Below, in pieces: positions 11,247-31,789 of a DNA stretch of 64,000 nucleotides; position 1 is the stretch's first letter, and every line of letters starts with the position of its first letter. The DNA is taken from the NCBI GenBank assembly GCA_028714495.1, contig JAQTMH010000003.1, positions 72,496 through 136,495 on the forward strand, read 5' to 3'. Origin of the DNA: Patescibacteria group bacterium (GTDB lineage: Bacteria; Patescibacteriota; Patescibacteriia; JAHIZJ01). Below the pieces are notes generated by a model. It saw only the letters and a program-made list of their open reading frames with translations, was not told the DNA's origin and did no database searches. A program made the position numbers and the translations under genes.

Positions 11247-11636
11247 GGGGATGTCCAACATCGACGGGTAGCCCATTCAAAAACCGGCCAATCAGAGCTC
11301 CAGAACTCTGTCAAAATCTGGAAAAACGACAAATGCCAAGTCGACTTTCGCTAAACTGAAGAATGCTTTCGCATCATTCAGTTTTGCGCCCGCTGTTGCC
11401 TAATAATCAACAGCCATCCGTTCTCTTGACTCCTGATAGGGAGATAACGGGTGTCAAATTATCAGGACGGACGATTTATCCGTTTCAGTAAGTCGTTATC
11501 GGGCTATGAAGCTAGAATGAAGAGGGCTTTTGTCTGTCTTGACCCTTTTCATTCGAATCAATCGAGATAGACTATGTTGGTAGAAGGTTTTTGGAAAACT
11601 ATCCAGACAGGGGTGAAAGGCCCCTCATCTCCACCA
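11247..11636 (+). ncRNA. ssrA: tmRNA (ssrA), one-piece
   Basis: Begins GGGGAUGUCCAACAUCGACGGG (compare E. coli GGGGCUGAUUCUGGAUUCGACGGG). The acceptor stem GGGGAUG pairs with CAUCUCC, giving the G3:U wobble, and the RNA ends CCACCA at 11631-11636. A T-arm-like AGGGG-UGAAAGG-CCCCU is present. A candidate tag reading frame ends ...FAPAVA then UAA UAA at 11401-11406. Located 6 nt after smpB. Confidence 0.75.
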
Positions 11637-14854: not shown

Positions 14855-15648
14855 ATGAACGAAATGGCTACTTCGACAGGCATAATTATCATCGCCACCC
14901 TGGCCGTCAGTTTTGTGGGATTGATGGGCGGTGTTTTATTGATTATTAAAGAGCAATTCACCCGCCGCTGGTCAGCCTATTTTGTGAGTTTCGCCGCTGG
15001 CAGCATTCTCGGTGCCACGTTTCTAAATCTTTTGCCCGAAGCCTTTGACAAGGGAGCGGACAAGACCCGTGACATTATTATGGCTATTTTTATTGGTATC
15101 CTGGTTTTTTTCATACTCGAAAAATTGCTGGTCTGGCACCACACCCCCATGAGGACGAAACTCACGTCCACACCCGGATCTACAGCCATAATCTGGCGAC
15201 TGCCAGGCCATTGATTATTGTCGGCGACGCCCTGCATAATCTTCTGGACGGAGCGATAATAGCCATCGCCTTTATGACTGACACGACACTGGGCCTGATA
15301 ACCTCAGCCGCCGTGATTGCCCATGAAATTCCGCAGGAGATTGGCGACTTCAGTATATTAATCAGCAGCGGCATGGCTAAAGCTCGAGTCCTGATTTGGA
15401 ACATTGCTGGTGCCTTGATTGCGGTTTTGGGTGCGCTCATCGTTATCATCGCCCGGGAAACATTTGAAAATGTTGAAGTTCCAATTCTCGGATTCGTGAT
15501 CGGCAACTTTATCTACATTGCCTTAGCCGACCTTTTACCCACGATTCAGCACGAAAGGAAGCTGACCAATACTCTCAACCAGATCTTTTTGATATTCGCC
15601 GGCATAGGCGTGATCTGGCTTCTTGGCACAATTCTGCCTCACGAATAA
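14855..15648 (+). pseudogene. zupT: ZIP-family metal transporter (ZupT-like) split by a 1-nt frameshift in the His-rich cytoplasmic loop. Either a pseudogene or a homopolymer sequencing error.
   Basis: ORFs 14855..15214 and 15211..15648 together give a ZIP protein (...HEIPQEIGDF...). The downstream frame read upstream of 15211 gives PHPHEDETHVHTRIYSHNLATARPLIIVGDALHN. The shift is within CACCACACCCCC at about 15137-15148. Confidence 0.6.
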
Positions 15649-22992: not shown

Positions 22993-23021
22993 TAAAAAAG
23001 ATACGAGATTGCTCTCGTATC
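22993..23021 (-). terminator. Rho-independent terminator ending the GC-rich operon
   Basis: gatacgaga-ttgc-tctcgtatc, followed on the minus strand by TTTTTT. Confidence 0.5.
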
Positions 23022-23031
23022 GAAATGAACA

Positions 23032-23937
23032 TTAGAGACTAGGCCGGGTGTCTCGGAGATATTCCATGAAGTACTGGGCATCTCGAGTACAACCCTTGGG
23101 CAGTCGTGGAACATCGCGGCACAGCACTGGCCGACCCGAGCATTCGCCCACTGCCTGCCAGAGCTTGATGCTCTGATCCAGCACAAACCTGGAAAAATCA
23201 ATCACGCAGTCAGTCGGAATCGAAGCGCCGCTGATCGGATCGCCGAACGGCAGGCAATACGGCAAAGCCACTTCTGGCTCGCACGGAATCACCTGGCTAT
23301 CAACCCGACGACCTGCGGTCCTCCCGGATAAAGGAACGCCGACATAAAAGTCCCGCTCGCAGACCCAATCAACTACAGCTGGGTACTCGCGCACACCGAC
23401 CAGCTCCACCCATGGATGCTTGGCCAGAAGCTGGTTTTCCGGCCGGCCAATGATTATCCCGACGATGACTTGACTGACCACATAGCCATTTTCCCGCATT
23501 AGTTCGGTTATCCGAAGCAGGGTGCCGCCTGAATAGCAACCGTCGTCAACCAGTGAAATCGGACGACCCTTGGGTAAAGATCTGATTTGGTCAACTAATG
23601 ACTCGAAGCCGGCACGACGCGATTCGCCTAGAATCTGGGTCGTGCTGATATCAGCCACGCGGTTGCACTCCAGATGATAGGGCGTCTGGTTGTAGATCTG
23701 GTCGATCGAGACAACGATCGTTCCGGCGGCTCGGGCAGCAATCGCGGCTTGCAGTTTTCCGCTCAAATCAGCCAGTTCGATAAGTTCAAGCGGCCGAAAG
23801 ATCGTTCGCAGATAGCCAAGCAGCTCCTGCTGGAGGGTCCGGAAAAAGTCCGAACTCGGACAGCTGAAGCCAACACGCTCGGCCCATCTGCGCATGAGGA
23901 ATTCCAGATCCTCGGTTACGAGGTAGGGTGGCTTCAT
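23032..23937 (-). CDS. Type-I phosphoribosyltransferase-like protein (PRPP-binding motif) with N- and C-terminal extensions. GC-rich.
   Basis: PISLVDDGCYSGGTLLRI matches the VLLVDD..TGGT PRPP loop. 301 aa. About 58% GC. 4-bp overlap with the upstream gene. Confidence 0.5.
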   Translation of the reverse strand: MKPPYLVTEDLEFLMRRWAERVGFSCPSSDFFRTLQQELLGYLRTIFRPLELIELADLSGKLQAAIAARAAGTIVVSIDQIYNQTPYHLECNRVADISTTQILGESRRAGFESLVDQIRSLPKGRPISLVDDGCYSGGTLLRITELMRENGYVVSQVIVGIIIGRPENQLLAKHPWVELVGVREYPAVVDWVCERDFYVGVPLSGRTAGRRVDSQVIPCEPEVALPYCLPFGDPISGASIPTDCVIDFSRFVLDQSIKLWQAVGECSGRPVLCRDVPRLPKGCTRDAQYFMEYLRDTRPSL

Positions 23938-24773
23938 GCTCTCCTCCTTTTCCCTAAGGGTTTCGTGGAAATCCGCTGTAGGATTTCCAGAGCTCCAGCT
24001 GTGATCGGCTCCGTAGCCACAAAGTCAGCGACCGCCTGTAATTCAGCGGCAGCATTGCTGACAGCGCAAAGTAGGTCTACATGTCCTAAGAGCCTGGCGT
24101 CGCTCCTGCCATCGCCAATGGCGATCACCCTGTATCCACGATACTTCCGCCGTAGCACGGGAACGGCAAGCTCTTTGTCTAACCCGGCACTTGATAGAAT
24201 CAGCACACCACATTCAGCATTGGCATCGATGTCCACCAACTCGGTTATTCCCAGTCTATCGAGAACCACTTTCACGGTCCCGACCACGCTGGGATAAGCT
24301 CCATAATCAGGAGTCAGCTGGTTTGTCCAGACATGCAGGCCAAAGCCACAGAGACGGAATGGATTGATGACAATCATCGTGCCTGACCGCGCATCTAGCC
24401 CGCGTTGGTTCGACAGGAGATCAAGGTAGTATTCCTCAGTCAGGGCGAAGTCTGGAAAAGCGCTCCGGAGTGAAGATATAATCAGCTGCTTGACCGAATG
24501 CCAGCCGATTACCTGCTGTCGAGTAAGTAGGTGACTGCCGGACAGCGTCGAGACAATGGCTCCTTTTTCACTGACGATCGGACCGGTAAAACCGAATATC
24601 CCCATCCAGCGCCGAAGCGGCTCATACGGAGTATCCGAGTTTAGCCCGAAAAGATCGCCCGCCTCCATCATCTGTCGAACCAATAGTTTGAACGCGTCTA
24701 GCTGGATTGTCGGCTGATAATCCCGACCGATAAGACTCATGTCGAGATCGCAGAGAATCAGTCTGGGTCTCAT
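23934..24773 (-). CDS. HAD-superfamily phosphatase (HAD-IIB / Cof-like). GC-rich.
   Basis: LILCDLDMSL (DxD motif I), IAIGDGRSDARLL (motif IV). 279 aa. Confidence 0.65.
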   Translation of the reverse strand: MRPRLILCDLDMSLIGRDYQPTIQLDAFKLLVRQMMEAGDLFGLNSDTPYEPLRRWMGIFGFTGPIVSEKGAIVSTLSGSHLLTRQQVIGWHSVKQLIISSLRSAFPDFALTEEYYLDLLSNQRGLDARSGTMIVINPFRLCGFGLHVWTNQLTPDYGAYPSVVGTVKVVLDRLGITELVDIDANAECGVLILSSAGLDKELAVPVLRRKYRGYRVIAIGDGRSDARLLGHVDLLCAVSNAAAELQAVADFVATEPITAGALEILQRISTKPLGKRRRA

Positions 24774-25783
24774 ATGGCCACCTCAGCCAGCGAAGAGATT
24801 AGGCGACCGGCCTGTTCCTGCATGGCTTCGATCAGCCAGACCCGTTCAGGATCTAGACAATAGTCACAACGGCAGGCGGCATAGGCACTGTAGTAGACCG
24901 CGCAGCACAATTCATAGAGCTGAGGCGTAAATATCCCCGCCTCAATCATCAGTTGCCGTGCCCTTTTGATTCTGCGCAAGGCGCCAAGATGGAATACAGA
25001 TCCCACAGTCTTTCTGATCTCCAATTCCTTGCGTCTGAGCGAGGCTTCGAGAGCGGCTAGGTCAACTGCGATGTTTCCGTCCGCCAAGCGCTCTTTGGAC
25101 CAAGGCAACGCCATCTTCGGGTCAATGAATCTGACCCGTGGCTGGTCAAGCGATTCGCTAACCAGCACATTGATAGCGACATTATCTTTCAGCGCCATCG
25201 AAGAAGACCAGCGTTCGAAAAACCAGGGAAAACGCTTTTGCAGCCGATCCAGCGCTGGGTTCAATCCGGTCATTTTCGCCCTTTCCAGATTTACCCGAAA
25301 CGCGCTCAGGCATTCCTGGAAAAACGTCTCTTGATCGTCTTGATTGCCGCGACTGGTCAAACTGTAGATCATTCTCAGCTTGTCAATCACCTGGCCGACG
25401 ATGTTGCCGATCTGAGATTGGCGTCGCTGGATGATTGGATGGTGACACGGCAGTGTTTCAAGCCATTCGCACAGGTCCAGGCAAATCGCCTCAAGCGTCC
25501 GTTCCCCCGCCACTTCCAGAAACAGCACTCCTTGATCATCCGTTTGGTTGACGAGTCGAAAATCAGGCAGAAACTCACCATATCGATCACCCAGCCGTGC
25601 CTGAAGAGTCCGATAAGCAGCCACATCGCCATTCAAGATGTCCAGCCGGCCGGCCTTCACCACGCCCCGGACCAGAAATGTGTCAGCGCCAGAAGCACCC
25701 TCTTGCCTGTCAAATGTCATCAAGCTGACTGCCGCTGATGCCGAACCAATCAAACCCTGCTTTGCTAAACCCAAGAATTCCAT
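24770..25783 (-). CDS. Hypothetical protein, possibly a small-molecule kinase of the APH/choline-kinase fold (weak). GC-rich.
   Basis: ALKDNVAINVL (D-x4-N), RFIDPKMA...DLAALE, reminiscent of the HGDxxxxN / IDxE.A / DLA motifs. RBS GGAGGGGAG. 337 aa. Confidence 0.35.
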   Translation of the reverse strand: MEFLGLAKQGLIGSASAAVSLMTFDRQEGASGADTFLVRGVVKAGRLDILNGDVAAYRTLQARLGDRYGEFLPDFRLVNQTDDQGVLFLEVAGERTLEAICLDLCEWLETLPCHHPIIQRRQSQIGNIVGQVIDKLRMIYSLTSRGNQDDQETFFQECLSAFRVNLERAKMTGLNPALDRLQKRFPWFFERWSSSMALKDNVAINVLVSESLDQPRVRFIDPKMALPWSKERLADGNIAVDLAALEASLRRKELEIRKTVGSVFHLGALRRIKRARQLMIEAGIFTPQLYELCCAVYYSAYAACRCDYCLDPERVWLIEAMQEQAGRLISSLAEVAI

Positions 25784-25939
25784 GGTCTCCCCTCCTCGTT
25801 TGTTGGTCAGTTTTCAAAGAGCCATTATAGTCAATGAGTGACTAGCAAATTTATTCGAGCCGTTTCCTTTAGTCTTTCATCAAATCAATGCTTCAGGTAT
25901 TCAAGGGAATTTAGTATATATAATCCAGTTTGTCAATGC

Positions 25940-27058
25940 TTAAGAAACCAAAGCATTTTTCTGCAATATTATGGCTTGTTTTAACACCTCGAAACTGGCT
26001 GGCCTCAGTTCCCAAATCACGCACAATTTACCATCGCTATTGGCGCTGATCATCTCCAGAACCGTCTTGGCTGATTTGAAAACAAATCCGACTGGAATGT
26101 GGTCGTCAATTACCACATCCCTGACGATTTGCCGCTTGTACCAAAAATCCGCTTTGGCTTTTTTGAGCTGATCCGGGCTGGCTTCTTTCGTAAATTCTTT
26201 GGTTGTCAGAGAATCAGACAGGTGCACTGCTTTTATCCTTTTTAATATTTCGGGATTATCAGCAAGTTCCTTTTTAATTCTCTGGTCAATCGAATCCGGT
26301 CTATCACCTGCTTCTTGCCCTAACACCGCAACACTGTGTGCTGTATCAAAAGTAACACCTACTTCATTTAAGTCACGGTTTATAAATATTTCCCTAAAAT
26401 CCGCCAGCCGCCGCACGCCCCTATCAATCGCACTGCCGTTTTCAAGCGTTAATAGTTTGGCAAAACCAGAATCGCGCTTTATCAAGTCTTCGGTAAATTG
26501 CCGAACTGCGCTGATCACTGCCTGATCAGAATATTTCCGATCGCCAAATAAAATATCATCATAATCAATCTGATTCGCGTGCCAAGTAGCAACCCTGGCA
26601 TCCAGCTCGCCAGCGATATCTAACTCTCTAGTTAAACGTTCAATCATTACTTCTGGTTTATCGCCGCTGAAATATTTTCGGACATTGGCTGGAGTATAAA
26701 AAGTACGCAGCAATCTCGCCTGATCTTGCTTGTAAAAAGGTATCCAGCTGGCCCAGTCTGATAAGTGGACAGTTAAATTTCCCTGAAATCTGATTTTCTT
26801 CAGCGGATTTGGATCAAAATTCTCGGTAAAACCGATAAAATCCTGGATCCGAATTTCCATTCCGTCAAAGCCCTGTTCCAGGCACCAGTTTTCAATTCTC
26901 GACAAATCCCTGTTAAACTCCTTGATAATCAGTGAGTTGACTGACAACAGCTGAAATCTGGCCGACTTTTCTTTCTTCCAAAGCAAATCAAAGTCTGCTG
27001 GCGGTTTGAGCGCCTTGAACTTTTCCTCGATTAATTTGTCTTTGCTGGTTAATTCCAT
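25940..27058 (-). CDS. Xylose-isomerase-like TIM-barrel protein (sugar-phosphate isomerase/epimerase or AP-endonuclease-2 family)
   Basis: Motifs VHLSDWA, VATWHANQ, LLTLEN, VTFDTAHS, VHLSDS. 372 aa. Confidence 0.55.
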   Translation of the reverse strand: MELTSKDKLIEEKFKALKPPADFDLLWKKEKSARFQLLSVNSLIIKEFNRDLSRIENWCLEQGFDGMEIRIQDFIGFTENFDPNPLKKIRFQGNLTVHLSDWASWIPFYKQDQARLLRTFYTPANVRKYFSGDKPEVMIERLTRELDIAGELDARVATWHANQIDYDDILFGDRKYSDQAVISAVRQFTEDLIKRDSGFAKLLTLENGSAIDRGVRRLADFREIFINRDLNEVGVTFDTAHSVAVLGQEAGDRPDSIDQRIKKELADNPEILKRIKAVHLSDSLTTKEFTKEASPDQLKKAKADFWYKRQIVRDVVIDDHIPVGFVFKSAKTVLEMISANSDGKLCVIWELRPASFEVLKQAIILQKNALVS

Positions 27059-27063
27059 ACAGG

Positions 27064-27822
27064 TTATTTGCTTAAAAGTTCAACCGCCCGTAAAGCAACC
27101 TTGATAGCTTTATCCACGCCTTGATCTGCCTCGGCTGAAGTCTCCAATTTATAAATTAAACCGGGGTCTTTCGCAATCTCGTCCAGCGGTTCAGTGGTAT
27201 TGACCGATAAAACCGTGCCGGCTTTTAAACCTCGCAGCTGGGCTAGCGTAAACACAGCCGAGCATTCCATTTCCGAACTCACTAGCTCGCCTTTTTTATA
27301 TTCAGGCAAATCCATCAGTTTTAAGAAATTATCAGTTGGCTCGTAAAATGAATCGTGCGTGCGGTTTGTGCCGATGAAATATTTAATATTTAATTCTTCA
27401 GCTGCTTGCTTCAAAGCCCGAAACACCTCAGGGTCGGGTTTGGCTTCGAATTCCTCGCCGACATATTCTTTGGTGGTGCCTTCCTGTCGGATCGCCTTAT
27501 CTGGAATAATTAAGTTCCCTGGAACAATGGTTTTCTTCAGGGCGCCGCAAGTGCCAATACGGATGAATATCTTGGCGCCTACCTTAGCCAGCTCCTCAAC
27601 GGCAATGGCCGCCGAGGGAGAACCAATGCCCGTCGAAGTGGCGGAAATTGGAATGCCTTTATATTTACCCGTGTAGGTCAAAAATTCCCTGTTAAAAACA
27701 ACCTCACGGGATTCGTCCCAATATTCGGCGATTCTCCTAACTCGAGCTGGATCGCCTGGAATCAAAACAATTTCGGCGATATCGCCTGGTTTAATTCTCA
27801 GATGTGGTTGTAAATTTTCCAT
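27064..27822 (-). CDS. Nucleoside phosphorylase of the PNP/UDP family-1 (DeoD/Udp-like)
   Basis: IPGDPARV...GIPISATSTGIGSPSAAIAVEEL...RIGTCGAL...SSEMECSA. 252 aa. Confidence 0.8.
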   Translation of the reverse strand: MENLQPHLRIKPGDIAEIVLIPGDPARVRRIAEYWDESREVVFNREFLTYTGKYKGIPISATSTGIGSPSAAIAVEELAKVGAKIFIRIGTCGALKKTIVPGNLIIPDKAIRQEGTTKEYVGEEFEAKPDPEVFRALKQAAEELNIKYFIGTNRTHDSFYEPTDNFLKLMDLPEYKKGELVSSEMECSAVFTLAQLRGLKAGTVLSVNTTEPLDEIAKDPGLIYKLETSAEADQGVDKAIKVALRAVELLSK

Positions 27823-27840: not shown

Positions 27841-28136
27841 AAAAAACTCTCATTCCTCGACAAGTTATTAAAAATAATAACTAGCTAAGGAACGAGAGTT
27901 TACTCCCGCGGTCCCATCCTTATTTCCGGTCTTTACCTTAAATCAGGCAACAACCAGACACTTATTTCAAGCTTCACGATGCGTGACCACCGTTCCCGGT
28001 TTTGACCGGGACTGCTTAAGAGGTGTGTTCAATGGTTTTCTGGGCCTGGCTTCCACTGTCCCAAGCTCTCTATTCAGCCAGAAATGGCCATTTACTATGC
28101 CTCTTTGTTAGCGCATTTGAATTAAATTATCAAGGT
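27841..28136 (-). promoter_or_regulatory. T-box riboswitch leader, His-specific (specifier CAC, antiterminator bulge UGGG), with its own promoter and an intrinsic terminator directly before the nucleoside phosphorylase gene
   Basis: Stem I UGGCUGAAUAGAGAGC... and specifier loop GAA-CAC-A are visible on the minus strand. The T-box sequence AAUAAGGAUGGGACCGCGGGAG is the reverse complement of 27907-27920. The terminator is AAACUCUCGUUCCU...AGGAAUGAGAGUUU plus U6 at 27841-27898, with UAGCUAGUUAUUAUUUUUAAUAACUUGUCG intervening. The antiterminator alternative is AAGGA[UGGGACC]GCGGGAG/CUCUC/UCCUU. The promoter is TTGACT, 18 nt, TAATCT. Confidence 0.75.
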
Positions 28137-28188
28137 AAATATAAGATTACACCATTGGCCTATTTCTAGTCAAATATCGGTTGTGGAT

Positions 28189-28220
28189 AAAAAAAGCCGT
28201 TGAGCAAGTTACTCAACGGC
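28189..28220 (-). terminator. Rho-independent terminator of hisS, overlapping its stop codon
   Basis: gccgttgag-caagtta-ctcaacggc followed by U7 on the minus strand. Confidence 0.55.
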
Positions 28221-29600
28221 TTCAAGAAGTGAACGAATGTGCGAAATCAATTGGTCGCGCGGAACCGAGTGCTGTTTGCCTGCTGCGCCGAATGTGGTCC
28301 GGAGGTTCTTCACGGAAGCTTCGCCTCGGCTGAGCTCATCAGGACCGACCACGATCGCGATCGGTATCCGCTGAACATCGGCGTATTTGAACTGACGGCC
28401 GATGCGCGTTTCCTCACCCATGTAGAGCTCAGTATTCAGGCCCTCTCGTCTAAGCTCCGTGGCCAGCTGCTGGTAGACACCCAACTGGTTTTGATCAAAG
28501 ACGGTGACCAGAACCTGGGTTTTGCTAGGCGCTGTTCCAACCAAGCCGAGCTGTTCCAGGGCGGCGAAGAGCCGATCTACGCCGATCGAAGCACCGGTAG
28601 CAGGAATGCTGGTTTCGCTGAACCGGCCGATAAGTCCATCAAACCGTCCGCCGGAAAACACGCTGCCCCAGGTCGGCAAATCCAGAAGCCTCGTCTCAAA
28701 CACCGGACCGGTGTAGTAAGCCAGACCTCTGGCAATTGACAGGTCGATGATGAAACGCTCGGGCGGGATGCCTTGGGCTTTGAGTCCGGACAGAATCTGT
28801 TCCAGCTCGACGATCCCTTCGTCAACGGCCGAGCAGCCATTGAAGAAGCGCCTGAGCTGTTCGATCGTCTCAACCGGACTTCCTCCTGAAATGCCGACGA
28901 ATTCCATAATCCGATCAGCAATTTCCGGAGCCAAACCGATGCAGCGAGCACCGGCAGGTACTTCTCTCTGATCCACGCCTTCAGGCCCTTGCTTGGTCAG
29001 GGTGGCTTTGACTTCTTCGAGGCCGACTCTCTCGATCTTGTCTAGGGTCCGGAAGATGTCCGTGGCCCAGAAAGGATCGAGGCCCAAGAAAACCATCAAA
29101 GCGTTCAGGATCTTGCGGTTGCTGAAACGGATCAGGAAACGGGTAAGCCCCAGCTCAACCAAAGTGTCGTGGATGATGGCGATGATTTCAGTGTCAGCGG
29201 CCATTGAGCTGGTGCCGACAGTGTCAATGTCGAATTGCACGAATTCGCGGAAGCGTCCAGGTGCCGGTTCATCGCCGCGCCAGACCGGTCCGACCACGTA
29301 CCGTTTGAACGGTCGGGGCAGATCCGGGTACAGGGCGACAAACCGAGCCAGAGGTATGGTGTGATCGAAACGCAGTCCGGCTGGACGTCCTTCAGGATCA
29401 TCAAATCGGAAGATCTTAAGTTCGCTTGCATCAGTCTCTTCGCCGAGGAGAATCCTACGGTCTTCAATCGCCGGCGTCTCAATCGGTACAAAGCCATAGC
29501 GTTCATAAACGCGACGGATCTTCTCGATTAACGCTTGCCTGGCAATCATTTGAGCCGGCAGGTAATCTCGAAGTCCGCGCAGAAGTCGTGGTTCAATCAT
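28209..29600 (-). CDS. hisS: Histidyl-tRNA synthetase (class II). GC-rich. The start is taken at the internal Met so as not to overlap tRNA-His.
   Basis: RGLRDYLP, FREFVQFDID (motif 2), GGRFDGL, GASIGVDRL (motif 3), an anticodon-binding C-terminus. AGGTGA sits 10 nt upstream of ATG 29600. The ORF-track start at 29687 would overlap the tRNA. Confidence 0.85.
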   Translation of the reverse strand: MIEPRLLRGLRDYLPAQMIARQALIEKIRRVYERYGFVPIETPAIEDRRILLGEETDASELKIFRFDDPEGRPAGLRFDHTIPLARFVALYPDLPRPFKRYVVGPVWRGDEPAPGRFREFVQFDIDTVGTSSMAADTEIIAIIHDTLVELGLTRFLIRFSNRKILNALMVFLGLDPFWATDIFRTLDKIERVGLEEVKATLTKQGPEGVDQREVPAGARCIGLAPEIADRIMEFVGISGGSPVETIEQLRRFFNGCSAVDEGIVELEQILSGLKAQGIPPERFIIDLSIARGLAYYTGPVFETRLLDLPTWGSVFSGGRFDGLIGRFSETSIPATGASIGVDRLFAALEQLGLVGTAPSKTQVLVTVFDQNQLGVYQQLATELRREGLNTELYMGEETRIGRQFKYADVQRIPIAIVVGPDELSRGEASVKNLRTTFGAAGKQHSVPRDQLISHIRSLLEAVE

Positions 29601-29637
29601 CTTCTGATCACCTGCCTTTCTTGATACGCCAGAAAAG

Positions 29638-29716
29638 ATGGGGGGCCGGACGGGAATCGAACCCGCGACCTCTTGATCCACAGTCAAGCGCTCTGACCAA
29701 CTGAGCTACCGACCCC
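29638..29716 (-). tRNA. tRNA-His (anticodon GUG) with genomically encoded G-1, C73 and CCA
   Basis: GGGGGUCGGUAGCUCAGUUGGUCAGAGCGCUUGACUGUGGAUCAAGAGGUCGCGGGUUCGAUUCCCGUCCGGCCCCCCA. Cloverleaf checked by hand. G-1:C73. Confidence 0.9.
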
Positions 29717-29736
29717 CAACACCACGAAGAGCCAAA

Positions 29737-29812
29737 AGACTGGGGCGAGACGGGAATCGAACCCGCGACCTCTTGATCCACAGTCAAGCGCTCTGACCAA
29801 CTGAGCTACTCG
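29737..29812 (-). tRNA. Second tRNA with a GUG anticodon. Its 60-nt core is identical to tRNA-His but the acceptor stem differs (GGGCGAG/CUCGCCC). It keeps C73 but has C at -1 and no encoded CCA.
   Basis: CGGGCGAGUAGCUCAG...GGUUCGAUUCCCGUCUCGCCC-C. The interior is identical to the upstream tRNA-His. Confidence 0.7.
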
Positions 29813-29858
29813 CCCGTTTTCCCGGCCTGAGTTTGTAACAGACCGGGAACTTGTGCAC

Positions 29859-31478
29859 CTAGAGCGCCGCCGCAACCGCTTGCCGCAAAGCGCCGCTCTG
29901 GATCAGCTTCAACATCTTCTGATGGTCAGCCATGAGGAATCGATCATCATTCATCTCCTCGATGGCCGACCGGATCACCTGAAGGGCGACACTGGTACCG
30001 CGACCGAGCTTCGGATCATTGAGCGACTTCTGAGTCAGAGTAATGCCCTGGGCCGCTCCGATGAGCTCCCACGCGATCACCGCGAAAGCCAGCTCGATCA
30101 CCCGACGCATGTGCCGAGCCGAGATTGAAGCCATGCTGACATGATCTTCCTGGCCAGCTGAGGTCGGGATCGAAATCGCCTTGGCTGGATAGCACATTAC
30201 TGCGCATTCAGCGACTAGGGCAGCCACCGCGTATTGGGCAATCATTAGCCCGGTATTGAGGTCTGACTCACCAGCCAAATCAGCTGGCAAGCCATAGCTC
30301 GATTCCGGGTTCAGCAGAGCGTACAAACGAGAGTTCGAGATGTTAGCCAGGCACTGGGCGGCCAGTTTCATCTGCTCACTGGCATGCCCGAGCGGTTCTC
30401 CGTGGAAATTGCCACAAGACACTGCGACAAACTGCTCGCCAACTTGGAAGATCAGCGGATTGTCAGTCGCCGAGTTTGCCTCGATTGACAGAGCTTCCTT
30501 TGCCCGATCAATGATTTCTCTGACCGGGCCGGCCACTTGCGGATAGCACCGGTAAGAATAGGCGTCCTGAACGCGCGGCACCTTCAGATCATTCGGCTGA
30601 GACTTCACATGCTCAGCTGGCAAATCGACCAGTCGACAAGCATGGGTCATCCGCTCTGAACCAGCAGTCAGCTGACGAATCTCTGCTGCCACCTGGATCT
30701 GACCCGGATAGGGTCTGGCCAGGTGAACCCGTTCGTCAAACGCAGCTGTCTCACCGCGGATCGCTTCGAGCGAGAGCGCAGCTGCCAAATTCGAGTACCA
30801 AAGCAGAGACTCAAGGTCAGCCTGTCCCAGAATTGCCTGGGCCAGAATGAAAGTCGAACCATTGGTCAGAGCCATGGCTTCCTTGCCTTTGAGAACGATC
30901 GGCTGCAGATCAGCGGCAATCAGCGCATACTTGGCCGTCATGAATTCACCCTGATACCAGGCACGCTGTTCTTCCGATCCCATGAGCGTTGCCGAGACAT
31001 GCGCCAGTGGACAGAGATCGCCACTGGCACCGACTGAGCCGATCTGCGGAACATAGGGAATCACGCCGGCATTGTAGAGATTGACCAGACTCGCGCAGAG
31101 TTCAGGCCGTACGCCGGAATGCCCCTTGGCAAAGGAATTGGCCCGCAATACCAGTGCCAGTCTGACTACCTCGTCTGGGAACGGTTCGCCAAAACCAACG
31201 CAGTGAGCCGGAATGTAGTGCCTCTGATACGCGGTGATTTCTTCACCGGGAATCATGACGCACTTGCGACTGCCGCAGCCAGTGTTGAAACCATAGACCG
31301 CGTGATCTTGGCCGTAAGCGACCAGACCATCACGAAACTGACCAATCTCCTGCATTCTTTCCCCGGTGATTTCAACCCGGGGAAAAAGGTGAACGCCGGT
31401 AGCATCATCCTCACCCCGGGCTGCCAGAAGACAATCGGGCAAACCGAGATTTTCGCCATCGAGCCTGATATCGCGCAT
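29859..31478 (-). CDS. MIO-dependent aromatic amino acid ammonia-lyase / aminomutase family (HAL/PAL-like). GC-rich.
   Basis: GSVGASGDLCPLAHV (the Ala-Ser-Gly MIO triad), YGFNTGCG, NPLIFQVGEQ. The start is at the internal Met preceded by AAAGGAGA. The position equivalent to the HAL Ser-His selectivity pair reads Ala-His. Confidence 0.7.
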   Translation of the reverse strand: MRDIRLDGENLGLPDCLLAARGEDDATGVHLFPRVEITGERMQEIGQFRDGLVAYGQDHAVYGFNTGCGSRKCVMIPGEEITAYQRHYIPAHCVGFGEPFPDEVVRLALVLRANSFAKGHSGVRPELCASLVNLYNAGVIPYVPQIGSVGASGDLCPLAHVSATLMGSEEQRAWYQGEFMTAKYALIAADLQPIVLKGKEAMALTNGSTFILAQAILGQADLESLLWYSNLAAALSLEAIRGETAAFDERVHLARPYPGQIQVAAEIRQLTAGSERMTHACRLVDLPAEHVKSQPNDLKVPRVQDAYSYRCYPQVAGPVREIIDRAKEALSIEANSATDNPLIFQVGEQFVAVSCGNFHGEPLGHASEQMKLAAQCLANISNSRLYALLNPESSYGLPADLAGESDLNTGLMIAQYAVAALVAECAVMCYPAKAISIPTSAGQEDHVSMASISARHMRRVIELAFAVIAWELIGAAQGITLTQKSLNDPKLGRGTSVALQVIRSAIEEMNDDRFLMADHQKMLKLIQSGALRQAVAAAL

Positions 31479-31789
31479 GACCGTTTCTCCTTTTGTGAGA
31501 AGCCCGCGAGCGACTGGTTTCGTTCTAGCAGTACGAGATTCCGTTCTCGGCCATAGACTGACCTCCTCGTGTTTGGATGGTTTGTTTGCGTAGTGGGTAA
31601 TTACAAGATAATCCTGCCCGCTTAACAAGCAAGATTATTGTCAATGTACTAGCTTTTCCAAGAATAACTCATCTTATCACGGGCCCAGAATCACTGTCAA
31701 TTAGCCCTTATGCACATAGCTTACTACATAATATTCTCAATAAAAAAGGCCGGGGGTTCATACACCCTGACAAAGTACTGGGTACGATA

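Follow-up and report, generated by a model that had tools for sequence, protein, structure and literature searches.

In Firmicutes, HisR, a member of the YerC family, acts as a histidine repressor with histidine as co-repressor and has the operator cacTTTAnnnnnnTAAAgtg; the his and transporter operons that it controls in some genomes are preceded in others by a His-specific T-box or a His attenuator (PMC9413887). In Lactobacillales and Listeria, T-box leaders of this kind control the his and hisXYZ operons (PMC9413887). Here we analyse a five-gene operon on the minus strand, at positions 23032-27822 of a stretch of 64,000 nucleotides (the window) from a Patescibacteria group bacterium (assembly GCA_028714495.1, contig JAQTMH010000003.1, positions 72,496 to 136,495). 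We regard the operon as probably a variant of a widespread histidine-linked phosphoribosyltransferase (PRT) module, whose role would most likely be to help bacteria of the candidate phyla radiation (CPR) obtain histidine. CPR, or Patescibacteria, are regarded as amino-acid auxotrophs with minimal metabolism. How they meet their amino-acid needs is largely obscure, and the module offers a testable hypothesis of histidine acquisition in an uncultured radiation.

The window shares with the T-box-controlled his and hisXYZ operons the RF00230 leader, the CAC specifier and the antiterminator/terminator switch, and induction by uncharged tRNA-His is predicted for it as well. As in Firmicutes, the T-box is exchanged across genomes for HisR or a His attenuator in front of the same target genes. 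The window differs in its host, a CPR bacterium, in the position of the leader, which lies downstream of hisS rather than before it, and in its targets, which are a nucleoside phosphorylase (PNP), a TIM-barrel protein (TIM), a kinase, a phosphatase and a PRT in place of biosynthesis or transporter genes. With the HisR regulon, related loci share a YerC-family gene and the published palindrome directly 5' of the module, whereas the window relies on its T-box and three loci (L011, L027 and L047) carry another palindrome.

Two further systems invite comparison. The hisZ-hisG pair also sets a gene of histidyl-tRNA synthetase (HisRS) type beside a transferase that depends on phosphoribosyl pyrophosphate (PRPP), under histidine control. 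However, the synthetase of the window is a full HisRS that has its anticodon-binding domain and exceeds the cut-off of the hisS equivalog, and the PRT-like protein of the operon has a type-I fold whereas HisG is of type IV; L008 and L017 contain a true hisG as well, so that the PRT-like protein is no simple replacement. The angustmycin set, which we take to be AgmE, AgmF and AgmB (nucleoside building by LOG, PRT and HAD proteins), shares with the module a LOG phosphoribohydrolase, a type-I PRT-like protein and a HAD protein, and sometimes a sugar isomerase and a kinase as well. In contrast, no pyrophosphokinase or dehydratase was seen in the module, histidine sensors regulate it, it is tied to hisS, tRNA-His and histidine ammonia-lyase (HAL), and it is wide in CPR rather than confined to actinomycete clusters. 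The regulatory parts (T-box, HisR and His attenuators) are ordinary members of known families. The superfamilies of the enzymes are known as well, but as a set they correspond to no known histidine pathway. Our literature searches found no description of the PRT-like module and no report of T-boxes, HisR or His attenuators in CPR.

All five minus-strand open reading frames (ORFs) of a preliminary description of this DNA are present. The features of the operon, in the direction of transcription, are:

27064-27822, minus strand: PNP/UP-like NP-I nucleoside phosphorylase (PF01048, PNP_UDP_1, 140 bits)
25940-27058, minus strand: xylose-isomerase-like TIM-barrel protein (PF01261, 30.0 bits against a cut-off of 31.1)
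25784-25939, minus strand: spacer of 156 nucleotides (nt) between the TIM and APH-like genes, with the GAGGAGGGG Shine-Dalgarno sequence and the GC transition
24770-25783, minus strand: kinase of APH/MtnK fold, 337 amino acids (aa), of a CPR-specific family (assigned from homologs and from AlphaFold2 (AF2) and Foldseek)
23934-24773, minus strand: HAD-IIB (Cof-type) phosphatase (PF08282, 38.6 bits against a cut-off of 20.9)
23032-23937, minus strand: atypical type-I phosphoribosyltransferase (PRT-like), 301 aa (PF00156, 26.1 bits against a cut-off of 26.3)
23000-23021, minus strand: terminator-like hairpin and T-run at the end of the operon

Pfam, homologs and AF2 models support the enzyme classes first assigned, for the TIM protein only tentatively, as its Pfam score is borderline. 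Three ATGA overlaps had been claimed, and we find two among the four junctions, at APH-like/HAD-IIB and HAD-IIB/PRT-like; the PNP/TIM junction is a 5-nt spacer without overlap, and the gap of 156 nt with its strong Shine-Dalgarno sequence is as originally reported. The first two genes have a GC content of 0.46 (PNP) and 0.43 (TIM), with 0.478 for the window overall, and the figure of about 58% for the last three does not hold (APH-like 0.54, HAD-IIB 0.53 and PRT-like 0.56). A terminator scan of the 156-nt gap found none there, and the gap is a probable recombination joint. That the five genes form a single transcription unit under the His-specific T-box is strongly supported. The unit is moreover larger than first described, with HAL, two tRNA-His genes and hisS (28209-31478, GC 0.56-0.57) directly upstream on the same strand.

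The leader in front of the PNP gene consists of two overlapping elements:

27885-28118, minus strand: His-specific T-box leader (RF00230, 90.6 bits, E 2e-20)
27844-27901, minus strand: T-box terminator hairpin followed by a U-tract (-33 kcal/mol)

A run of Rfam at its gathering threshold missed this T-box, and a local covariance scan detected the match, which spans model positions 1-219, the full length. In its specifier, GAA-CAC-A, a purine comes after the His codon CAC. Both adjacent tRNA-His genes have C73, and once CCA is added a C73 tRNA-His ends in CCCA, with which the UGGG bulge can pair. The terminator has a z-score of -4.5, with 0 of 200 shuffles folding as well, and the segment CUCUCGUUCCUU belongs both to its 5' arm and to the 3' half of the antiterminator. 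The His T-box previously placed upstream of the operon is therefore present with its specifier, bulge and terminator, and to judge from its sequence it is a canonical transcription-attenuating leader. Uncharged tRNA-His would stabilise the antiterminator and allow the five genes to be transcribed as far as the terminator at 23000.

Six genomes (those of the window, L009, L010, L012, L013 and L015) have a His T-box in front of their PRT-containing operon. All six leaders have GAACACA and UGGG, and the orthologous leaders score 77-93 bits with RF00230. The leader lies immediately 5' of HAD-IIB-PRT in L013 and 5' of PNP-HAD-IIB-PRT in L012 and L015. No T-box was found in L011 and L027 when both were scanned to E<=0.5; these two loci have HisR and His-His leader peptides in its place. 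L018 has a weak T-box match (14902-15199, 38 bits, E 7e-5) just 3' of hisS-tRNA-His and 5' of a gene for a low-molecular-weight phosphotyrosine phosphatase; its bulge reads UGGU.

A gene of the YerC/YecD family, which is TrpR-like (TIGR02531, 78.8 bits against a cut-off of 42.2), stands directly 5' of the module in L011, L047, L027, L028, L016 and L013, and also in L021, L018, L037, L038 and L049. We scanned about 0.75 Mb of collected sequence for the published operator, whose consensus is that of Firmicutes, accepting at least 12 of 14 positions. The scan returned 14 sites, 12 of them at the module. Predicted HisR boxes, nearly perfect copies of cACTTTA-N6-TAAAGtg, accompany a hisR gene in eight loci:

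L013, 5738 and 8715: predicted HisR boxes, one 5' of hisR and one just 5' of the T-box
L016, 9542: predicted HisR box
L018, 13152 and 13170: predicted HisR boxes
L021, 15079: predicted HisR box
L028, 8909 and 9268: predicted HisR boxes
L037, 1392: predicted HisR box
L038, 3870: predicted HisR box
L049, 8577: predicted HisR box

In L018 and L021 a predicted box lies between hisR and hisS, and hisS itself may be controlled by HisR there. The window has neither a hisR gene nor a HisR box and uses the T-box. The other palindrome, AATGTrTTAACACATT, occurs in L011 (7886-7901 and 8253-8270), L027 (3794-3817) and L047 (131-156); it sits 5' of hisR, in L011 also 5' of the leader, and a divergent HisR subgroup may use it as operator.

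Four loci each contain one short ORF with two consecutive His codons (NHHRQTSF, QHH, KHH):

L011, 8285-8347: His-His leader ORF
L047, 471-521: His-His leader ORF
L027, 4123-4185: His-His leader ORF
L017, 5063-5116: His-His leader ORF

These ORFs are followed by alternative hairpins of terminator/antiterminator type and a U-run. The NHHRQTSF leader is conserved between L011 and L047, and when the leaders of L011, L047 and L027 were shuffled such an ORF arose in 1-3% of cases each. We consider the four ORFs candidate ribosome-mediated His attenuators.

The gene content of the module was compared in 26 non-redundant PRT-like loci of at least 8 kb, with 10-kb flanks and tblastn counts for a panel of proteins. 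The PRT-like gene is in all 26, hisS in 18 and a His-specific regulator in 14, and every locus has hisS, a His regulator or both; in some genomes the module is just joined to the hisS-tRNA-His unit. HAL is found in 12 of the 26 and is the first operon gene in several lineages. An N-ribosidase is present in 22 loci (PNP in 9, SLOG/LOG in 13 and an IU-nucleoside hydrolase, IUNH, in 2); these three are non-homologous and replace one another, and the LDcluster4 proteins keep the LOG motif SGGSGTxxE. Phosphatases are of HAD-IIB type in 14 loci and of HAD-IA type in 7, the APH-like kinase is in 7, TIM in 4 and GNAT in 9, and deacylases are represented by AstE/AspA (6), M20 (9) and M42 (2). The smallest form of the module is hisR-LOG-PRT in L049.

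The link to tRNA-His charging had been left unexplained in the preliminary description. Four independent lines now bear on it, namely the T-boxes, HisR with its boxes, the His-His leaders, and linkage to hisS, tRNA-His, HAL and hisG. Together they make it very probable that the module belongs to a histidine-limitation regulon. Because genes under such control in studied bacteria supply histidine, we take the module to be histidine-supplying as well.

The PRT-like protein is the invariant gene of the module. Its PRPP loop reads LVDDGCYSGGT, and 27-29 aligned sequences all share D131, D132 and G137. Of 27 members, 20 match PF00156, and the window protein matches the PRPP-binding part only. An AF2 model with a predicted local distance difference test score (pLDDT) of 94.6 has the core alpha/beta PRT fold, as would be expected of a type-I PRT; in structure 119-156 residues align with known PRTs, and only about 40% of the protein can be aligned with type-I PRTs. 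The N-terminal helices and the C-terminal third (about 110 residues) have no solved counterpart, and in this the model and the alignment bear out the extra N- and C-terminal regions noticed in the preliminary description. The C-terminal third carries the invariant motifs DWVCERDF, GVPLSGRT and LPYCxPFGDPxxGAS. The invariant Asp, Glu and Arg residues of the protein would, we infer, suit a zwitterionic acceptor.

Compared with the known type-I PRTs (orotate, adenine, hypoxanthine-guanine and uracil PRTs, PurF, PurR and PyrR), the PRT-like protein reaches no equivalog model, its best NCBIfam hit being 15.7 bits against a cut-off of 200, and it does not share the acceptor hood of the characterised subfamilies. 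Nor did the TIM, APH-like or HAD-IIB proteins reach any NCBIfam equivalog. A profile search of 1.84 billion representatives returned 404 PRT-like clusters at E<=1e-30 and 1388 at E<=1e-3, counted at 50% identity. Ten representatives that were looked up occur in metagenome and assembly collections only, and their clusters are named 'hypothetical protein' at most. Two members are fusions with the partner at the N-terminus, GNAT-PRT-like P0051 (475 aa) and HAD-PRT-like P0089 (516 aa), the HAD of the latter being a HAD-IA-type phosphatase. We considered whether the protein might be a PRPP synthase and rejected this, as the ribose-phosphate loop alone is common to the two and there is no sign of a second ATP-binding domain. 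It is strongly supported that the PRT-like proteins are a new type-I PRT family and the invariant component of a CPR-restricted module. Thus one PRT family of at least 404 clusters is tied to histidine by four genomic signals, which gives a sharp hypothesis for orphan enzymes.

The 337-aa protein, identical to NCBI PHI73_03455, had been credited with a weak APH/choline-kinase-like D-x4-N signature. The window protein itself has no Pfam hit at E<=1. Its homologs, 25-32% identical and confined to CPR genomes such as Uhrbacteria, include some that match PF01636 (APH), and P0004 does so with 31.6 bits, over the cut-off of 23.2. An AF2 model (pLDDT 81.7) searched with Foldseek retrieved APH(3'), methylthioribose (MTR) kinase (MtnK) and glucosamine kinase at E of about 5e-5 and probability 1.0, which points to an APH/MtnK kinase fold. 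The family shares with these enzymes the bilobal fold, the Asp/Asn pair (D200 and N205 of the Dx4N motif), the Mg-binding Asp (D221) and the ATP-binding Lys (K43), all invariant in the family, at an identity of 10-16% and TM-scores of 0.4-0.5. Fold and invariant catalytic residues thus agree with the original signature. The window protein has LKD where every other member has HRD. An invariant C-terminal motif with three Cys, YAACRCDYCLxPERxWL (residues ~300-317 in the window protein), is not found in APH or MtnK and might be a site of metal binding or redox chemistry.

The DLD (residues 9-11) and GDGRSD motifs of the HAD-IIB phosphatase are readable in its sequence, and orthologs stand at the same position in L011, L012, L013, L015, L008 and L002. 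In L006 (11633-11870) and L007 (7223-7460), both Uhrbacteria-like, the HAD-IIB gene of the cluster is fragmented, the PRT-like gene is missing and a PMM-type HAD-IIB gene adjoins hisS, which suggests decay or replacement of the module.

The PNP covers profile positions 1-232 of 233 of PF01048 and scores 214 bits with the uridine phosphorylase equivalog, short of the 280 required; its top hit in the PDB is T. thermophilus PNP, 1odi. The protein reads DSFYEPTDNF, lacks the GQxxR insertion of the uracil-binding Gln/Arg region and has Asn at the position of DeoD Asp204, like T. thermophilus PNP; the roles of GQxxR in uracil binding and of DeoD Asp204 are those we presume for the family. It is predicted to be a hexameric NP-I family nucleoside phosphorylase (PNP/UP-like). 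For the TIM protein, an ortholog (P0041) scores 33.4 bits on PF01261, over the cut-off of 31.1. Only four homologs were found, each beside PNP in a PRT module, and E206, D238, H279 and E350 are invariant; searches of PDB sequences with the single sequence and with a profile gave only noise.

The genes directly upstream of the T-box form a block of their own:

29859-31478, minus strand: histidine ammonia-lyase (HAL, an MIO enzyme; PF00221, 498 bits)
29742-29815, minus strand: tRNA-His (GUG) copy 1 (ARAGORN, Rfam; C at -1, C73, CCA not encoded)
29639-29715, minus strand: tRNA-His (GUG) copy 2 (ARAGORN, Rfam; G at -1, C73, CCA encoded)
28209-29603, minus strand: hisS, histidyl-tRNA synthetase (TIGR00442, 355.9 bits against a cut-off of 286.75)
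28193-28223, minus strand: intrinsic terminator after hisS, its tail being one copy of a 13-nt repeat

The HAL gene (GC 0.567) likely starts at Met51 of a 589-aa ORF, and its product scores 471 bits with the hutH equivalog, under the cut-off of 539. The ASG MIO motif is kept. An alignment with the P. putida enzyme finds the equivalents of Y53, H83, N195, Q277, Y280, R283, F329 and E414 kept as well, residues that we take to contact histidine. Because these residues are conserved, the enzyme would act on the free amino acid, and it most likely handles free histidine and urocanate. The hisS product (gene GC 0.559) carries the HGTP anticodon-binding domain. A mechanically called hisS ORF (28209-29687) adds 28 codons from a TTG and overlaps tRNA-His copy 2; the true start is almost certainly the ATG at 29603.

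The two tRNA-His copies are 97% identical over 68 nt. Bacteria normally encode G-1 in tRNA-His. Among the hisS-linked tRNA-His genes of L002-L023 and the window, 14 of 16 are without a genome-encoded G-1 and have C, T or A at -1 instead, with either C73 or A73 as discriminator. Module-linked tRNA-His in CPR is thus mostly without the canonical encoded G-1, and our literature search found nothing on G-1 of CPR tRNA-His.

Comparison with the sister contig L010, 91-96% identical to the window in nucleotides on both flanks, bears out the mosaic origin proposed in the preliminary description. L010 lacks the block 28195-31758 (about 3.6 kb, with HAL, both tRNA-His genes and hisS). A 13-nt direct repeat, CGGC(C/T)TTTTTTAT, bounds this block with copies at 28187-28199 and 31740-31752, and the repeats are terminator tails; the block looks like a recently inserted 'histidine cassette' with its own synthetase and tRNAs. 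Furthermore, where the window has TIM, APH-like and HAD-IIB (23950-27014), L010 has a 50%-identical TIM and a deacylase of AstE/AspA type instead. Common to both are the T-box, the PNP gene, whose product is 96% identical, and the PRT-like gene, whose product is 94% identical and which has a GC of 0.58 in L010; the GC-rich PRT-like gene is therefore older than the cassette swap. To judge from this alignment, the middle cassette and the hisS block were recently exchanged or inserted.

Neighbourhoods in more distant genomes agree with a module of exchangeable parts. The order PNP-TIM-APH-like-HAD-IIB-PRT recurs in L011, a JGI contig of even composition with 36.5% GC. L047 shares synteny (hisR ... 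PRT-like-ArgRS-GT4) with L011, and in L047 AstE-LOG-HAD-GNAT replaces PNP-TIM-kinase-HAD-IIB, another cassette swap. The Uhrbacteria-type cluster reads hisS<->HAL-LDcluster4-APH-like-HAD-HAD-IIB-PRT-like-GNAT-M20. The locus is a clean natural case of operon evolution by cassette swapping between near-identical genomes. The GC-rich trio of the window did not prove unrelated to the genes upstream, as the L011 order and the L013 T-box indicate, and no protein of the operon fell into a well-known unrelated pathway.

These results favour what the preliminary description had offered as a possibility, an undescribed salvage or modification system for histidine or an imidazole relative, the chemistry of which can be proposed from the gene set. 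The enzymes of the module would form opposing pairs, with PRT against PNP, LOG or IUNH, GNAT against AstE, M20 or M42, and kinase against HAD. Because of these paired installing and removing enzymes and the GNAT-PRT and HAD-PRT fusions, we reason that one small molecule is handled, which should offer a ring nitrogen for phosphoribosylation and an alpha-amino group for acylation. Within a regulon for histidine, such a molecule would be histidine or a close relative, that is, free L-histidine or an immediate imidazole relative. The PRT-like protein would use PRPP to place a 5-phosphoribosyl handle on an imidazole nitrogen, and in many variants GNAT would acetylate the alpha-amino group. HAD phosphatases would convert the ribotide to the riboside, the APH-like kinase would work in the opposite direction, and TIM would serve as an accessory sugar or sugar-phosphate isomerase. 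PNP, elsewhere a LOG-type hydrolase or IU-nucleosidase, would then take off the ribosyl group and free the base, and the AstE, M20 and M42 deacylases would take off the acyl group. A cycle driven by PRPP, and often also by acetyl-CoA, could draw scarce histidine into the cell; alternatively, it could pull the unfavourable HAL reaction (urocanate + NH3 to His) toward histidine. The product would be passed to the neighbouring HisRS.

We hold the parts of this proposal with different confidence. The specific chemistry, a PRPP-dependent trap-and-release or protect-transform-deprotect cycle on histidine or an imidazole relative, is tentative and on the doubtful side. Somewhat better placed, although still short of likely, is the broader idea that CPR secure histidine by a PRPP-dependent route, a third way in addition to de novo synthesis by the his pathway and to dedicated transporters. 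We judge in the same way its fuller form, in which a new histidine/imidazole PRT works with interchangeable N-ribosidases, histidine is obtained as such or from urocanate by reversed HAL, and the intermediates are N-ribosyl and N-acetyl compounds. It is conceivable to a similar degree that the underlying chemistry is categorically new, and a PRPP-coupled trap or a reversal of HAL, if true, would be new biochemistry for an amino acid. Storage of histidine, with ribosyl-His made at times of plenty, was considered and rejected, since the PRT is histidine-repressed and starvation-induced. Catabolism of histidine via a urocanate ribotide was rejected on the grounds of the regulation and the conserved histidine-binding residues of HAL.

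Several observations weigh against a histidine-supplying module of this kind. A cycle in which the same groups are added and removed is futile unless it is kinetically coupled to uptake, to HAL reversal or to HisRS, and we know of no precedent for such a cycle with an amino acid. Four loci have the PRT-like gene and hisS without an N-ribosidase nearby. HAL stands outside T-box control in the window, whose T-box itself falls 2.4 bits short of the Rfam gathering score of 93, and one promoter-like match inside the 156-nt gap (25936-25908) makes an internal promoter possible. Finally, hisG-LOG-PRT-like are co-operonic in L017 and hisG, hisE and hisI lie in the cluster of L008, which would fit a role in de novo synthesis equally well.

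This last point leads to the alternative that survives best, in which the module would assist canonical de novo histidine synthesis, through mobilisation of ribose phosphate and PRPP, disposal of AICAR or support of HisG. PNP, LOG or IUNH would strip ribose phosphate from nucleosides and nucleotides, the phosphatase and kinase would shuttle ribose phosphates, and the PRT-like protein would feed or parallel HisG, for example by regenerating adenine nucleotides or as a second ATP/purine PRT. The products of LOG and PNP, ribose 5-phosphate and ribose 1-phosphate, are PRPP precursors, as such a role would require. Control by T-box, HisR and attenuator is typical of his biosynthetic operons, and the hisG-LOG-PRT-like genes of L017 lie behind the His-His leader. 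However, hisG is in only 2 of the 26 loci, hisE and hisI are only in L008 among the annotated flanks, and no hisA, F, H, B, C or D is found in the Pfam-annotated flanks of the loci. Nor does the window operon qualify as a canonical his operon (hisG, E, I, A, F, H, B, C, D), and hisG, hisE and hisI of L008 as tblastn queries found no homolog in the 32 kb around it (12001-44000). The GNAT-PRT fusion and the recurrent GNAT and AstE, M20 or M42 proteins imply an amino-bearing substrate, which this alternative leaves unexplained, as it does HAL. We consider it unlikely, and continue to favour a module that supplies histidine.

Far less plausible is a cluster that makes or resists a nucleoside-type inhibitor of HisRS, with the linked hisS as resistant target copy. 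Here PRT, LOG and HAD would build the nucleoside, GNAT, deacylase and kinase would provide pro-drug chemistry or self-resistance, and the T-box would sense inhibition of HisRS. An aminoacyl-tRNA synthetase gene inside an antibiotic gene cluster follows this logic. The PRT core has weak sequence and fold similarity to the adenine phosphopsicosyltransferase 7f06, L008 and L029 each have two hisS copies, and the hisS block of the window, missing from L010, is a recent insertion. On the other side, a histidine co-repressor and His-codon attenuators suit supply genes and not antibiotic clusters, the smallest module is just hisR-LOG-PRT, and among the annotated neighbours of the module no ligase, ATP-grasp or NRPS gene was seen; in L017 an AMP-binding gene lies about 1 kb 3' of the PRT-like gene. 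A housekeeping unit is suggested by the linked tRNA-His, and the module occurs widely over CPR lineages. PADLOC models searched against seven module proteins likewise gave no hit at E<=0.01. An anti-phage defence system, considered separately, was rejected because PADLOC gave nothing.

There is also a very slim chance that the PRT-like protein acts on tRNA-His or HisRS, for example in a PRPP-dependent modification that offsets the missing G-1. The tight tandem of PRT-like gene, hisS and tRNA-His in many loci and the 14 of 16 linked tRNA-His genes without encoded G-1 would be in keeping with this. Its recurrent partners are instead small-molecule enzymes (PNP, LOG, IUNH, HAD, GNAT and deacylases), it is fused to GNAT and HAD, and no RNA-binding domain was detected in the PRT-like protein in domain scans.

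An accidental mosaic, in which T-box-PNP-TIM serve ordinary nucleoside salvage and the GC-rich trio is an unrelated, co-oriented horizontal insert, is the least probable explanation of all and is largely refuted, for although GC jumps from 0.43 to 0.54 at the 156-nt gap with its promoter-like match and the cassette exchange against L010 is real, L011 has the same five-gene order at uniform GC, the PRT-like gene stands at the same place in L010 and is older than the swap, T-boxes precede PNP-HAD-IIB-PRT and HAD-IIB-PRT elsewhere, and the gap has no terminator.

Elsewhere in the window, a tmRNA gene lies at 11247-11636 (RF00023, 104.7 bits), and L011 and L015 also have a tmRNA gene no more than about 5 kb away from the module.

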